Positions 14,977-63,769 of a DNA stretch of 64,000 nucleotides are shown here, piece by piece. The translations under genes were made by a program, and so were the position numbers. Position 1 is the stretch's first letter. The number at the start of each line of letters is the position of its first letter. Source of the DNA: Octopus vulgaris (lineage: Eukaryota); contig OX597819.1 of the NCBI GenBank assembly GCA_951406725.2, positions 9,176,001 through 9,240,000 on the forward strand, given 5' to 3'. The notes under the pieces are model-generated. The model was not told the DNA's origin, did no database searches, and was given only the letters and a program-made list of their open reading frames with translations.

Positions 14977-14978
14977 GC

Positions 14979-15038
14979 TTGCACTGAAGATTAAAAAGTG
15001 CATTTTGTGCACTAATTATGAAATCATATGATATGCAG
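14979..15038 (+). ncRNA. Type I hammerhead ribozyme (AUA site)
   Basis: Stem I TTGCA/TGCAG, core CTGAAGA, stem II with AGTGCA/TGCACT, GAA, palindromic stem III ATCATATGAT, H17 = A15033. Confidence 0.75.
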
Positions 15039-31600: not shown

Positions 31601-31678
<78 letters not shown>

Positions 31679-31679
<1 letters not shown>

Positions 31680-32165
31680 TCACTGCAGCCCTTCGCTTCA
31701 GGAGTCTCTTAGCGCGCCGGAACCAAGACATTTGAAATTTTATTCCCGATGTAATCAGTAAGACTAAGCACGTGTCTGTCTTGACACAGAGAGCTGGGGT
31801 TAGTCTTGCAGTTTGCATCTCGAGGACCGAATGTACTGAAGAAGTCACGGACACTTGAATTATGCAAGTAATTCTTTTGTTAAGACCGAAACCGAGGTAT
31901 GCATTTAAGTCTGTTTTTTATTTAATTTTTCATATGTCCTGCCCGCCAAATTTGGTTCTGGTGTTCGCTGAATTCTTCCTCTAGAGAATTTCCATTGTAG
32001 TTTGATCGTTTATGATCTATTTCTAGCATTCTGGCCGGCTACCTAGCAGGCCAGCCCTGCCAATATACACATATATTTGAATTTTCTCTGACTCCTCAGA
32101 TTTTTTGAATGCTGGACTACTGGTTTTAAATTGATATTAAAATTAATATTAATTTATCTCCCTCA

Positions 32166-32170
<5 letters not shown>
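31679..32170 (+). mobile_element. Penelope-like non-coding repeat P2 inside (TA)n
   Basis: Diverged copy at 61898-62536, (TA)n on both sides, contains a hammerhead. Confidence 0.78.
31830..31905 (+). ncRNA. Type I hammerhead ribozyme (GUA site)
   Basis: Stem I AATGTA/TGCATT, core CTGAAGA, stem II GTC..GAC with inner GAATTA/TAATTC, GAA, stem III ACC-GA-GGT, H17 = A31899. Confidence 0.8.
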
Positions 32171-32258
<88 letters not shown>

Positions 32259-32260
32259 TA

Positions 32261-32431
32261 GGCGCAGGAATGGCTGTGTGGTAAGTAGCTTGCTAACCAA
32301 CCACATGGTCCCGGGTTCAGTCCCACTGCGTGGCATCTTGGGCAAGTGTCTTCTGCTATAGCCCCGGGCCGACCAATGCCTTGTGAGTGGATTTGGTAGA
32401 CGGAAACTGAAAGAAGCCTGTCGTATATATG

Positions 32432-32466
<35 letters not shown>

Positions 32467-32631
32467 TTGTGTGTCTGTGTTTGTCCCCCTAGCATAGCTT
32501 GACAACCGATGCTGGTGGTGTGTTTACGTCCCTGTCACTTAGCGGTTCGGCAAAAGAGACCGATAGAATAAGTACTGGGCTTACAAAGTATAAGTCCCGG
32601 GGTCGATTTGCTCGACTAAAGGCGGTGCTCC
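32261..32631 (+). mobile_element. SINE family A, 3'-truncated
   Basis: Match ends at ggcggtgctcc. Confidence 0.88.
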
Positions 32632-33144
32632 AATTAAAGTAGGTTACATGGTGCGTTTAGACACTTTCGTTTCAGCCGATTCTCATGAAAAAAAAGTTAT
32701 ATAAAAATCCTAACCACTTGGCCACACGCCTTCATCCCGCCCACACACGCGCGTGTGTGTGTGTGTGTGTGAGAGAGAGACAGGCAGAGACAGAGACAGA
32801 GAGACATACAGATAGAGCGAGACAGAGACAGAGAGGGAGAGAGAAACAAAATTTTGCCTCGTATTCTATAATTGCTGAGAGTAAACTTGACTAGGGCTTG
32901 GAGCGATGACGTTAGTGAATTGCATGTATTCCATTGAATGAGGTTTCTTAAGTGCTGCAATCGTATCATTGGGAGGTGTTCTTCATCGAAAATATATTGG
33001 CTACTTAAACATGAAGAGCAGGATAGAGAAACAAGTAAAGGAAAGCGAATACATAGTTTTACTATTCAGGTTGTGTGTATGCTTATCTGAAGGACCAAAA
33101 GTGTAAATAAAGTACTTTGGTGAGGCAGAAAGCAAACATTTTTT

Positions 33145-37429: not shown

Positions 37430-37496
<67 letters not shown>

Positions 37497-37595
37497 CTAC
37501 AGAAGGCTTGTTTTAAAAGGTTAAAAAATATATATTTGAGTCAATATGTCTGAAGAATGTTATAAATATTTTTCATACAATGACATAGTTTTTGA

Positions 37596-37633
37596 AGAAA
37601 TGACCGGTTTCGCGTTCAGCTTTTCAAATTTCT
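37596..37633 (-). ncRNA. Minimal type I hammerhead, U3-A8 compensatory core
   Basis: AGAAAT-TTGAAAA-GC-TGAAC-GC-GAA-ACCGGT-C-ATTTCT. Confidence 0.78.
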
Positions 37634-37635
37634 CA

Positions 37636-37673
<38 letters not shown>

Positions 37674-37793
37674 AAATAGTAAAAAGTGAAAAAACTACAG
37701 AAGGCTTGTTTTAAAAGGTTAAAAAATATATTTTTGAGTCAATATGTCTGAAGAATGTTATAAATATTTTTCATACAATGACATAGTTTTTGA

Positions 37794-37831
37794 AGAAATG
37801 ACCGGTTTCGCGTTCAGCTTTTCAAATTTCT
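37794..37831 (-). ncRNA. Minimal type I hammerhead, second tandem copy
   Basis: Identical to 37596-37633. Confidence 0.78.
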
Positions 37832-37833
37832 CA

Positions 37834-37888
<55 letters not shown>

Positions 37889-49463: not shown

Positions 49464-50829
49464 TCATTACATAGTTTAGAGTTTACATTTTCTGGGAAAC
49501 AGCGGATTAATTCAATTACTCTTATTTTGGTATCTGAAACTTTTCAATTTGGTAAAACTTACTAGGATGGCTTCGTCCAAGGATAATAACAAAATGAACA
49601 AAATACCACCACACACATTAGGAGTAATTTCATACCGCTCAATATTATACCAGTATCAAGATCAATAATTGTGGGGAATTCTCGTCTGATGTCCATGGGT
49701 TTTTTTTTTAATGATTTAGAAATTAATGGTGAAAGTCCACAATATCGAATTGAGTGAATGTGCTCGAGAGTATGTTTTACAGACATAAAACTATTGTTCA
49801 AGTTACTCGCCAATGGATTTTTTTTCTTATTGAGAAACCTAAGAGACATTATATATCTCGCAAAACCGGCAACAACCAATGAAAATGCGTCCAAACACCA
49901 ATTAAATGATTTGTAGTGTTTGTAATTTCATTGCTTTGCGTTGCCAGCCGAATCAAGGCCAGAACTGAGTTCGAACAGGTAACTCGAAACACTTCATATA
50001 TGCCTTCTTTAATTTGAATTGTAAATTTTTAATAAATTTTAATTGATACTCTATTTGGGTTTAATGGTAATCCTAATTTTGAGGTTTATTGCATAGAGAA
50101 TTCGATTTCTAACTATTCCCAATTCCCTCGTGCATTTAAGCCAGAGAGAAATTTAGTATGTGGCTCTTAAACGTAATAGACGTTTTGTACATAGCATCGT
50201 GGTCCACAGTTTTAACTGAGAAACTTTCTATATTTATGATATTATTGATGGTAGAATATTATCTTTTTTTAATGTTCTGGTGATATTGTTCCTCTAGAGT
50301 TTAAAGTATGTTGTATTTTTTCTTCTGAAAATATCTGTGGATGTTAGTATATTGTTTGAGGCTTCATGTAATTATTCATGATGATTTAGAGGAAATTGTT
50401 GTTGTTTTGATATATTATGGTGAATTCGCATTCGAAGTTTTCAAGTATAGTGCTACTTTTGAGTTTTAGATCTGTACATGTTTTCAGAGGTCCCAGAACA
50501 ACATTTTAAAATTCTCGGAAGAGAAGAGAAACCTGAATTAATTTACTTTTTAATTTGGATGTCACCACAGTATAATCAGGAAATTCTAGTAAGAAATTTC
50601 CCAATAGCATTCATATGCAATATGTTTTTCAATATCTTAATGTAGATTCCTGCATGAATAACATCGCTTCTATAAATCATCTTTGATGAAGATATCACAA
50701 ACTTCGATGGCTCCATTTATTAAAACAGCCATTAAAGTCACTTAACTGAAGATCAGAAATATCTAATTGCCTTCAACAATGAAAATTCTTCGAACAACTC
50801 ATACAAGTCCTTCTGATTCAAAACTGTAC

Positions 50830-52275
50830 CCAACGGACACACACTAGGTAGACTTAGAAAAGACTTAATTAGCGCTCTAGGCTCAATGGGACTCAAGATC
50901 ACCGTTGAGACTAATCTCACCACAGCAGATTTCCTAGATGTTACTTCAGATCTGGGTTCTGGTACATACAGGTCCTATCACAAGCCAATCGAGTGGCTGT
51001 CCTATATTAACACAGCCTTCTGCCACCCCACTATAGTGTCAAAGAACCTAGTGAAAGGTGTAAGCAAGATCTCGAATCTATCCTCTAACCAAGATATTTT
51101 CGATGCCGCTGCCCCCTACTACAACGAGGCACTGGTTTCGAGTGGGTTTATGGATCGCATCTCCTACACACCAGGCCCTAGGACCCGGAAAAAGAAGCGC
51201 TGCAGAAACGTCGTTTGGTTTTCCCCACCCTTCTCACTCAACGTTAAGACTTGTGTGGGAAGGATTTTCCTAAGATAAGCACTTCACACAGACACATAGA
51301 TACAGGCATTTATTTAAAAGCACAACCAAAGAGTCTCCTTTAGTCGTGCATCTAACATAAAAAATATTTTAACAAACATCCACAATAAAAGGGCGGAGGC
51401 AGGTCACTCTTGCAGGGTATACAATAGCTGTCCAGGAGGAGACCGATGCGAGGACGAAGAGGATATCTATGAAGCTACACTGACACCTAGAACTGCCACC
51501 CGCATTACCAGTAATGTACCATCCAACAACAATGATGACACCGGAGGTGATGACAGTAGCAGATTAACTAGCTCTAACGCCATCGACCCCGGTACAGTCG
51601 CCACACCCAGAGATGATGAACAGTCCGGGACCAGCAACACAGAGGAGGTAACCGACGACCCCAGTACTACCACCACAGACGGTGACCAAACCATTATCAT
51701 CGACACCAGCAGTGACCGGCCCTAAACTATATATTACCATCAGCGGCAAGCTGGCAGAAACGTTAGCGCGCCGGACGAAATGCTTAGCGGTATTTCGTCT
51801 GTCGTTACGTTCTGAGTTCAAATTCCGCCGGGGTCGACTTTGCCTTTCATCCTCTCGGGGTAGATAAATAAAGTACCAGTTTCGCACTGGGTCGATATAA
51901 TCGACTTAATCCCTTTGTCTGTCCTTGTTTGTGCCCTCTATGTTTAGCCCCTTGTAGGCAATAAAGAAATATATATGTTACCATCAGCCACTCTACCGCC
52001 GGCAGCATCAACGCTAAACATAAGACCAGAGACGAAAACCACGGCGATAACAAGTGCGGAGACGGCAGACGTGACCAACACCGCCGAATCTTTGCGCCAT
52101 AACGACATCAACGCTGGTGATACCAACAACATCCTCAAGTCTGGAGCCTACCAGAGATACACCAGGAGTGTGAATACAGCCACCTCTCAAGCTTCTGAAT
52201 ATATATCGGATCAGCCAGGACATCTTTCAAACGACGCTTCCGCAACCACCAGTTGTCCTTCAGAGTCCCAGAAAG
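50830..52275 (+). mobile_element. Penelope-like element ORF fragment: RT C-terminus, Cys linker, T/S/D-rich extension
   Basis: GLKITVE..FLDVT.DL..Y..YHKP..YIN..HP..YNEAL..VWFSPPFS.NVKT.VG..FL, then SCRVYNSCPGGDRC....IYEATL. Confidence 0.85.
51743..51970 (+). mobile_element. SINE family C with 17-bp TSD
   Basis: tatatattaccatcagc / tatatgttaccatcagc. Confidence 0.9.
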
Positions 52276-60940: not shown

Positions 60941-61219
60941 CCAACGAGAAAGACTGTTTTAACGAAGTCGCGTCTTTTCCTAACCTTCGAAACGCGGAGT
61001 ATATAAAACGGGACAACTGATGAAGGGATTGTTCTTTATGTTGCCTGTCTCGTTTCTCTATTTGTTTCTTTTGTTGTCCGAAAGACAGTTCGTTTTCCAT
61101 GTTTTTGTTTTTTTATGTTCTCGTTTCTCATATTGTTCACGGTTTTTTTGACGTCCTGTACACATATATGCATGTATATATACATATATATGTCGGTATG
61201 CAATATATGTATGTATATA

Positions 61220-61253
<34 letters not shown>

Positions 61254-61822
61254 TATATATGTATATATATATATATGTATATATATATACATATATATAT
61301 ATACATATATATTAATAAATAAAACATATGCATATATATAAACATATATGTACGTACCTACCGCTACATGTACATATACACGCATATATATGTTCAGGAC
61401 ACCAAAAAGACGTCGAACACAATGAGAAACGAAAAAATAGACACAAACCCAAGGAACTGGACAATTTGTTTAAACAACAAAAAAATAGAGTACAGGACAA
61501 TTAACACAAAGAAAAAAACCCTTCTTCAGTCGCTATGGTTTCATCTACTCTGCGTTTCGAAGGTGAAAGCGAGACGTATCTTCGACAAGAAACTTTCCTT
61601 ACTGCGAAAAGCAAATCAATAAAAATTTTGAGATCTTTTCGCAGAGGGGTAAAAAATGGTAACAAAAACAGGACAGTAACGACAGTACAAATTATAAACA
61701 GTAAAAGACAGGACAAGGAAAATCAAGATAAGAAGGGCTGTTAACGCCGAACGAAAAAAAGTATTACGAACGCGGATTTTTTTGTGAACGACGAACGGAA
61801 CAAAAATAATTGTTGTCCAACC

Positions 61823-61825: not shown

Positions 61826-61897
<72 letters not shown>

Positions 61898-61899
<2 letters not shown>

Positions 61900-62536
61900 G
61901 AATTCAGCGAACACCAGAACCAAATTTGGCGGGCAGGACAGATGAAAATTTATATAAAAAACAGAATTAAATGCATACCTCGGTTTCGGCTTTTAACAAA
62001 AGAATTACTTACATAATTCAAATGTCCGTGCTTCATCAGTGCATTCGTTCATTGTAAATGTAAACTGAAAAACTAACCCCAGCCTTCCGTGCCAAGACAG
62101 ACACGTGCTTAGTTTTACCGATTACATTAAGGATAAAATTTCAAATGTCTTGGTTCTGGCGCGCTAAGAAATTCCTGAAGCGAAGGGCTGCAGTAAATAA
62201 TTCACTGCGGTTAATGTGCTTACTACTAGAGAACGTATTTATTTCAATATTTAAATAATGAGGGAGATAAATTAATATTAATTTTAATATCAATTTAAAA
62301 CCAGTAGTCTAGCATACAAAAAATCCGCTGAATTTTTCCTCTAGAGAATTCCTTTGTAATTTGATCGTTGATGATCTGTTTCTAGCATACGGCCGACTTC
62401 CTAGCAGTCAAGCCCTGCCAATATACACATATATTAGAATTTTCTCTGACTTCTCAGATTTTTTGTATGCTAGACTACTGGTTTTAAATTGATATTAAAA
62501 TTAATATTAATTTATCTCCTTCATTATTTAAATTTA
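61898..62536 (-). mobile_element. Penelope-like repeat P2: partial tandem on minus plus an inverted segment
   Basis: 61898-62195 is the reverse complement of 31679-31975, 62252-62325 is the reverse complement of the unit end, and 62326-62536 is a direct copy of 31966-32170. Confidence 0.8.
61970..62045 (-). ncRNA. Type I hammerhead ribozyme (GUA site), canonical core
   Basis: AATGCA-CTGATGA-AGC..GCC-GAA-ACCGAGGT-A-TGCATT. Confidence 0.82.
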
Positions 62537-62594: not shown

Positions 62595-62728
62595 AGTAAG
62601 TTTTACCTTAATAATTTTCCTTGTATTGTTTGTCCTGTACTCTGTTTTTTCGTTGTTAAAAAAGTCCGTTTCCTTGTTTGATTTTATGTTTTCGTTTCCC
62701 ATTGTGTTCTACGTTTATTTGTGGTGTC

Positions 62729-62795
<67 letters not shown>

Positions 62796-63049
62796 TGTAT
62801 ATATACATGTAAATATAAGTATGTACATATATGTATGTATATATGCATATATTTTATTTATTTATTATATTGTTATTATATGACCGAACGCACGCGTTAT
62901 TTCTCTATTTCTCTTCTCCAAGTAAGTTTTTATTTGAATAATCATGACGCGCACTCTGACTCTTTTCTTGACCTTTCCTCTCAGCCTGTCTGTCTTCCTC
63001 TCTACTTGTCTCTCTCCTTCCTATTTTTCACCCTTTCTGGTTTATTTTC

Positions 63050-63088
<39 letters not shown>

Positions 63089-63584
63089 CTCCTCCTCCTC
63101 CTCTCTCTGGCCGTTGACCAGAGGGCTACTAAAACTTTCTTTCAGCTTCGTGCTTCAACAAGCATACATCGACTTCCCTGTCTTTCGCAAGCCGATTTTT
63201 CACATGCGTTCTAACTAATTTTTCCACCGTCTAGACCTAAAAAAAAGCCCTTATTGTTGGTTCCCTGTCCTGTTATTCTTTATTTGTACTGTTTTTCTTC
63301 ATTTGTATTGCTTTTACGTCCTGTTCTTGTCACTTGTTTTACCCCTCTGCAAAAGAATTTTACTTAATTCCTTTTGCAGGAAGACTGCTTCGGTCTGGCC
63401 GTGTTCTGCCCTTAACTTCGAAACACGCATTGAGTCGAACCAGGGGCAGCTGATGAAGGGGAATTTTCCTTGTATTGTTTGTCCTGTACTCTGTTTTTTC
63501 GTTGTTAAAAAAAAGTCCGTTTCCTTGTTTGATTTTATGCTTTCGTTTCTCATTCTGTTCTACGTTTATTTGTGGTGTCCTGTA

Positions 63585-63642
<58 letters not shown>

Positions 63643-63720
63643 TGTATATATACATGTAGATGTAAGTATGTACATATATGTATGTATATATGCATATATT
63701 TTATTTATTTATTATATTGT

Positions 63721-63725
<5 letters not shown>
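62595..63725 (+). mobile_element. Repeat P3 partial tandem with (TA)n
   Basis: ~62613-62880 repeats at ~63462-63726. Confidence 0.65.

Positions 63726-63765
<40 letters not shown>

Positions 63766-63769
<4 letters not shown>

Follow-up and report, generated by a model that had tools for sequence, protein, structure and literature searches.

The repeat at 31679-32170 of the window (the whole 64,000-nt stretch of DNA analyzed here) is probably a copy of a non-autonomous, retrozyme-like retroelement that is moved in trans by a Penelope-like RT/GIY-YIG protein. Judged from its sequence, it is one more example of the retrozyme/Penelope type, and the type itself, its compensatory changes and the link between retrozymes and Penelope elements have all been published already. 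The ribozyme is in itself ordinary, and the value lies in the element. Specifically, the family is young and high in copy number, it comprises two subfamilies with compensatory changes along the whole element, and one of its insertions exceeds the unit in length, all of which makes it good material for testing the mechanism of mobilization. That mechanism is left open in the available part of a 2026 preprint (bioRxiv 10.64898/2026.07.22.740005), where the retrozyme-Penelope link is drawn from similar sequences and their joint occurrence, mainly among vertebrates. The element is likewise suited to the question of what is under selection, cleavage or a fold that binds protein. The literature that we consulted on the ribozyme and on a guessed octopus host does not describe this element; Repbase/Dfam and some supplements may hold it, or variants with a long stem II.

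Organization of the 548-nt unit

The window is microsatellite-rich, animal-type DNA with many decayed retroelement and Tc1 fragments, and it contains one other locus of the repeat, at 61897-62533, which is about 89-91% alike. The first copy (copy 1; 31679-32168, + strand) is 5′-truncated, ORF-free, just under one unit long and a member of the young subfamily. It lies between a left (TA)n flank at 31604-31678, the presumed target, and a right (TA)n flank at 32171-32260, which the 3′ ends of the family enter at the same place. The second locus follows (TA)n at 61826-61896 and consists of two pieces in opposite orientation. Its inverted piece (61897-62325, − strand) comprises the last 67 nt of the unit, a 64-nt spacer (62195-62258, − strand) that closes the unit and is absent from copy 1, and then the unit start through the hammerhead, that is, the first 297 nt of the unit. 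The direct piece (62326-62533, + strand) supplies the 3′ part from nt 288 to the end, overlaps the inverted piece by 10 nt and stops at (TA)n. Because locus 2 returns to the unit start, the unit is 548 nt long and arranged head-to-tail. It has no ORF open in any frame, and its GC content is 35-39%. With respect to target-site duplications, our check found both loci to sit in (TA)n. An 8-bp hairpin occupies the unit junction (62187-62207, − strand); copy 1 starts at its loop, and copy 2 retains it by way of a G-U pair.

The wider family was surveyed in four of 24 listed public runs, as contigs only, with 998, 882 and 426 contigs aligned in three DNA-like runs and 12 in the fourth; none of the listed runs is recorded as RNA. 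At least two subfamilies and hundreds of variant contigs are present; in run X1, 355 of the 998 contigs are at least 99% alike to copy 1 and 97 are less than 90% alike. Summed contig depth was not taken as copy number. The 3′ end is shared across the family, in that a loose end behind 32165 runs into (TA)n in 11 X1 contigs, as it does in locus 2. The joint that goes back to the unit start, with about 57 letters between, also occurs in one contig of run X9, a run that may be RNA, and this contig is 1 letter in 285 off copy 1. The same junction exists as DNA in the window, so that it is no evidence for circles. Loose ends at 31995 and 32029, found in several runs, suggest relatives of greater divergence with which the 3′ half of the unit is shared. 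A Helitron or MITE, considered for the hairpins at the ends, was dropped, as the 5′ ends vary, the 3′ end is fixed and the head-to-tail junction is crossed.

The hammerhead motif

The motif in copy 1 is a genuine type I hammerhead in its match to the CUGANGAH...GAAAN-palindrome-NUH consensus, and it is predicted to cleave. Together with a distal extension of stem I it occupies 31825-31911 on the + strand. The core CTGAAGA (31836-31842, with N7 at 31840) is followed by the extra nucleotide typical of Penelope-type hammerheads, here an A (box and extra nucleotide, 31836-31843; PMC4209133). An irregular stem II (31844-31887) comes next, built from a 3-bp helix IIa, an internal loop, a 4-bp helix IIb, a further internal loop and a 7-bp hairpin capped by a GNRA tetraloop at 31864-31867. 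The remaining segment (31888-31899) comprises the GAAA box (31888-31891), a dimer-type palindromic stem III and GUA; ACCGAGGT at 31891-31898 (+ strand) is unchanged between the copies. The sequence-only reading had placed the cut at A31899, which agrees with the hammerhead model: this residue is H17, and cleavage is predicted 3′ of it. Helix I is open at the cut-site flank and has 7/7 pairs in each copy, plus a 3-bp extension (31825-31827 with 31909-31911) in which one C-G pair becomes A-U in copy 2. The hammerhead of copy 2 lies on the − strand at 62046-61969 (61964-62050 with the extension), where the core begins at 62039 and H17 is 61976. Both copies contain the conserved core set (C3 U4 G5 A6 N7 G8 A9, G12 A13 A14 A15.1, U16.1 H17).

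In terms of specificity, a descriptor of the hammerhead shape gave 0.01 matches per shuffled window over 100 shuffles, and 0 with a 7-bp stem I. Rfam searches returned no hammerhead family among 146 matches or among 2 matches, and those matches are microsatellite artefacts; the long stem II may be the cause of this missing hit, which concerns a library match and not the definition of the class. Exact-pattern scans yielded 0 matches in viral contigs and 0 in metagenome contigs. A looser pattern gave 106 loci, one of which (L094) has a 7-bp stem I; all were set aside as chance matches, since none is BLAST-similar to the element and L094 lies inside an ORF of a contig with 51% GC.

The stem III palindrome can form a self-duplex of −6.6 kcal/mol with six pairs around a tandem G-A. 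When two molecules are cofolded, copy 1 gives the dimer, whereas the best cofold of copy 2 does not. At the base of helix II, G10.1 and C11.1 are both present, and the hammerhead carries one extra C on the 3′ strand. The stable register places an A opposite a C in both copies, and the canonical G10.1-C11.1 register, with one C bulged, carries a penalty of 4.6 kcal/mol. The basal A-C mismatch described earlier as conserved is thus seen in both copies, but as one of two registers, and its A corresponds in sequence to the extra nucleotide of the published CUGANGAH consensus.

Differences between the copies within the hammerhead

The sequence-only reading held that the changes between the two hammerheads preserve structure, and much of what it listed is borne out by the alignment. 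N7 is A in one copy and T in the other, T31834C converts a U-G pair of stem I to C-G, the GAATTA/TAATTC inner hairpin is identical at 7/7 pairs, and the stem III palindrome and GUA are the same in both copies. The proposed T-A to C-G covariation in stem II does not survive. The sole optimal alignment instead has T31845 lost, G31884A and one G inserted, a register shift in which helix IIa goes from 3 to 2 bp through deletion and not through an in-register change. Three further differences had gone unlisted: C31854T in an internal loop, C31865T at the N of the GNRA tetraloop, which is kept, and the double change C31827A/G31909T in the distal stem I extension. On the hammerhead model, 0 of 23 pairs are changed on both sides.

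The hammerhead has diverged by 7 events in 78 nt, versus 42 in 407 outside it (Fisher P 0.84). When seven edits were placed at random, the core and stem III were spared in 0.16 of trials, and stem I as well in 0.06. Basal stem II was also kept in 0.015-0.025, and an outcome at least equal to the worse copy was reached in 0.002-0.003; without indels the last two values are 0.07 and 0.02. With criteria that were chosen post hoc, the changes avoid damaging sites at about 0.02 by randomization, which is modest support for selection on the fold. A test restricted to the hammerhead on the MFE fold was not significant (0.14, 0.50).

Variants in the public contigs were tabulated as 30 rows at 28 places, apparently only places at least 31 letters from a contig end, so that the table is incomplete. 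Within the ribozyme it contains C31865T, the GNRA N (6-22% of depth in the three DNA-like runs), A31885G (11-31%) and an extra A after 31881. G31884A is missing from it, and the stem II form of copy 2 is therefore not the common one. A31885G is the commoner family variant, and pairing is kept in all modelled combinations, with or without the extra internal-loop A. Loss of T31845 alone opens helix IIa in the models. Among the 24 loose ends listed, T31845 is missing together with N7 = A in at least three contigs, an A-to-G change lies opposite a U of stem I in at least two, and one contig combines three pair-keeping changes of the inner hairpin with a lost GNRA.

Proposed mode of propagation

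Locus 2 is most simply read as the product of a single round of reverse transcription, on a template that at about 625 nt exceeds the unit, in which a second priming event left the 5′ part inverted. Twin priming of this kind is known for L1. The longest locus in the window amounts to about 1.14 units with one ribozyme, and no locus with two complete hammerheads occurs in the window. The features of Penelope-type insertion are present, namely partial-tandem and inverted, 5′-truncated structure, an internal 3′ end and an AT-rich target; the accessible portion of bioRxiv 2021.04.23.441226 describes partial tandems and inverted 5′ copies as typical of such elements.

In the mechanism that we favor, multimeric transcripts would pair their palindromic stem III in trans and be cut after A31899, the predicted site, probably slowly or with the help of a protein, and the resulting monomers may be ligated into circles. 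The Penelope-like RT/GIY-YIG protein, acting in trans, would nick AT-rich DNA, and reverse transcription would start at an internal point of the RNA, directly beyond the terminal AT hairpin. This 13-bp AT-rich hairpin (32127-32156, + strand) immediately precedes the common 3′ end, does not differ between the copies and is a candidate signal for the start of reverse transcription. Copying would then continue across a cut site left uncut or religated; at times it would extend beyond one unit, and a second priming event would invert the 5′ part. Those source copies in which the ribozyme and the overall fold are kept would propagate, and the compensatory pattern between subfamilies would follow. 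The window contains no autonomous partner of the element.

We hold a further proposal only tentatively, namely that this is a recently active retrozyme family copied by Penelope-like machinery from circular 548-nt RNA, with the whole viroid-like fold under selection and switching off the hammerhead in the monomer. The more-than-unit length, the fixed internal start, the twin-priming inversion and the (TA)n target would then be single-insertion footprints of circular-RNA copying, and the hammerhead would be an unusual one, with a 45-nt stem II and an extra base at the helix II junction. If true, the family would allow a direct test of how animal retrozymes move and of the purpose of Penelope-type hammerheads.

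Possible, though we doubt it, is that the hammerhead no longer needs to cut. Its fold would then be a binding or priming scaffold for the Penelope-like protein, and the more-than-unit copies would come from uncut tandem transcripts, not circles; this is partly compatible with movement in trans as proposed above. Both window copies run through the cut site, and the template must therefore have been uncut or religated. The available part of PMC11167929 reports that ribozyme mutants of an anole element insert normally and that uncleaved RNA is the main template, and in the part of the 2026 preprint at hand only 1 of 9 Xenopus dimers was cleaved in vitro. The extra C at the base of stem II and the position of the strongest covariation, outside the core, point the same way. 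These observations have to be weighed against the retention of the dimer palindrome and against the core and stem III, where 18/18 positions are identical in the two copies (P 0.16) and none is touched by a variant at the 28 listed places of the family (P 0.34), both being weak results.

The anole element, PAc (Poseidon, Anolis carolinensis), bears on our preferred reading more broadly. The accessible text of PMC11167929 describes AT-rich cleavage, an internal RT start near a stem-loop, protein-assisted ribozyme cleavage and an uncleaved template. Our element is like PAc in its AT-rich targets, in a presumed start of reverse transcription downstream of the hammerhead near a stem-loop, and in being copied through an uncut site. 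PAc, however, is autonomous, with an ORF that begins in stem II, whereas the present unit loops back ORF-free, and the 3′ end here lies about 270 nt past the ribozyme.

Relation to retrozymes and Penelope-like elements

The 2020 description of animal non-LTR retrozymes (PMC7229834, in the part available) covers, among others, a mussel family and an axolotl ribozyme whose helix II has a U-U mismatch at its base, and the corresponding part of the 2026 preprint treats retrozymes as non-autonomous Penelope derivatives of 51-972 bp that are often monomeric. The present element falls within the latter range and above the 150-450 bp given in the former. It shares with retrozymes a non-coding unit with one type I hammerhead, GC below 50%, strongly self-paired RNA, a head-to-tail junction and dispersed monomeric copies. 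It is unlike them in that an array of two complete ribozymes is not seen in the window, in that its ribozyme is of the Penelope type and not canonical, and in its insertions, which have (TA)n targets, a shared internal 3′ end and 5′ inversion. With no two-ribozyme array seen in the window, we call the element retrozyme-like. Nor do we class it as an autonomous Penelope-like element, the unit returning to its start without an ORF.

Hammerheads in the pseudo-LTRs of metazoan Penelope-like elements are known from Cervera and De la Pena 2014 (PMC4209133), who also reported compensatory change in such hammerhead families. Ours resembles theirs in the CUGANGA box with its extra nucleotide, in a helix II that begins with G and ends with C, in a short palindromic helix III fit for a dimer (as in the Aedes, D. 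willistoni and Saccoglossus rows), and in compensatory changes among mostly dispersed copies. It differs in having a 45-nt insert in helix II, with two internal loops and a GNRA tetraloop as its cap, which is about double the longest insert in the 44 rows examined of the supplementary alignment. It also differs in an additional C at the base of this helix, on the 3′ strand, and in a unit that is without an RT/endonuclease ORF.

It is accordingly worth asking whether an autonomous Penelope-like element, with its ORF at some other place, left these copies as truncated pseudo-LTRs, which we consider improbable. The hammerhead does bear the pseudo-LTR signature, most motifs of this kind are dispersed remains of truncated elements (PMC4209133), and the window holds an RT remnant of the Penelope-like type. 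Past the common 3′ end, however, both subfamilies return to the unit start after 64 nt, the unit has no ORF, and the 24 loose ends listed resemble diverged unit sequence. The anole element, in the available part of PMC11167929, differs in having its ORF begin in the ribozyme. We found no RT plus GIY-YIG ORF between pseudo-LTRs, the unit returning to its own start, and within the window the element has no DNA similarity to a coding pseudo-LTR. The RT remnant, at 50817-51480 (+ strand), we take from its motifs to be a decayed C-terminus of a Penelope-like RT with the start of its endonuclease region. It gave no match in a Pfam search, and its atlas matches carry PF26215 in about a third of members. 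The element shows no similarity to the flanks of this remnant, and a link between the two was rejected, as they have no DNA in common.

Element-wide fold and compensatory changes

Selection on the RNA fold in the source elements, which the sequence-only reading had proposed, is probably real. The support extends over the whole element, is better from helices outside the hammerhead core and comes mainly from changes other than those that it listed. Copy 1 folds more stably than its shuffles, with z from −3.5 to −5.0 for the linear molecule, compared with −2.1 for the opposite strand and −1.4 to +1.2 for six control stretches; the unit modelled as a circle has z −3.95 and is 62% paired. When the 44 substitutions of copy 2 are laid on a fold computed from copy 1 only, they break 8 pairs, versus 16.8 expected under letter-matched random placement (P 0.0008), the two copies being two data points of one divergence. 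The centroid fold of copy 1 gives 6 broken pairs versus 14.7 expected. The deficit persists without the ribozyme (P 0.004), and the opposite-strand control behaved as expected (P 0.10-0.39). Pairs changed on both sides number 3 on the copy 1 fold, versus 0.8 expected (P 0.04). The reverse test, on a fold from the two pieces of copy 2, was not significant (P 0.07-0.26), and one of four control repeats reached P 0.04 on the MFE fold.

The three double changes fall in two domains. The long hairpin 5′ of the ribozyme (31748-31819, + strand) contains 31748/31819 and 31762/31805, both G-C to A-U. In the 3′ domain (32022-32116, + strand), a helix of 32022-32031 with 32107-32116 contains 32030/32108, U-A to A-U, and U-G becomes U-A at 32114. 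A fourth double change, the C-G to A-U replacement at 31827/31909 described above, derives from the two-sequence consensus fold. The hairpin and ribozyme domains are enclosed by a long-range helix of 31709-31742 with 31923-31971 (31709-31971, + strand), in which G31719A keeps its pair and A31934C breaks one in the fold of copy 1. The longest identical run between the copies (31935-31988, 54 nt) follows directly on the 3′ side of the ribozyme and supplies this helix with its 3′ strand.

Several of these changes are found well beyond the window. G31748A and G31762A recur family-wide, with their partner T's present in an X9 loose end; A32108T and G32114A likewise occur family-wide, and one X9 contig carries both letters of the 31827/31909 change. 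As several of the differences between copies 1 and 2 recur across contigs, these arose in source lineages as subfamily differences. The 30 family variant rows, set against the fold, break 8 pairs versus 11.1 expected, which is not significant (P 0.11-0.14). It is very unlikely that pairing was preserved by chance or mutational bias while two copies decayed neutrally: the substitution rate is equal inside and outside the ribozyme, transitions often leave G-U pairs, the reverse and family tests are not significant and the finding was picked post hoc, yet the letter-matched randomization, the three double changes within that same copy 1 fold and the many differences common to many contigs all speak against it.

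In folds of the whole unit the ribozyme is a minority state, with a stem I probability of about 0.2 in copy 1. For locus 2 modelled as a circle this probability is 0.01, and its best fold differs from that of copy 1 and is without the 31748-31819 hairpin.

Other features of the window

The same 64 kb holds four further hammerhead-like motifs, from three other families. One, at 38582-38510 (− strand), has CTGAAGA, an extra G, a long stem II (−15.5 kcal/mol), a palindromic stem III and a 5-bp stem I, and it lies in a segment of roughly 230 nt between microsatellites that is single-copy in the window. Another, at 14977-15036 (+ strand), has a 10-nt stem III that is palindromic throughout and a stem II with U opposite U at its base, and starts a 310-nt segment that is also bounded by microsatellites. 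Two minimal motifs of the U3-A8 form, at 37825 and 37627 (− strand), each have a 7-bp stem I, a 2-bp stem II and a palindromic stem III; they are hosted at 37442-37887 by units of 198 nt with (TA)n between them, and a third unit there is degenerate. Near 49963-49992 the sequence again resembles a hammerhead, in degenerate form.

Locus 2 is flanked by another TA-associated repeat family, at 60979-61706 (− strand) and at 62613-62881 and 63284-63768 (+ strand), whose members are about 70-95% alike. These repeats contain CTGANGA and GAAAC boxes in reversed order, and no hammerhead is formed. Copy 1 is adjoined at 32260-32632 by a frequent SINE-like repeat, presumably an octopus tRNA-derived SINE, which is found in at least eight other places.
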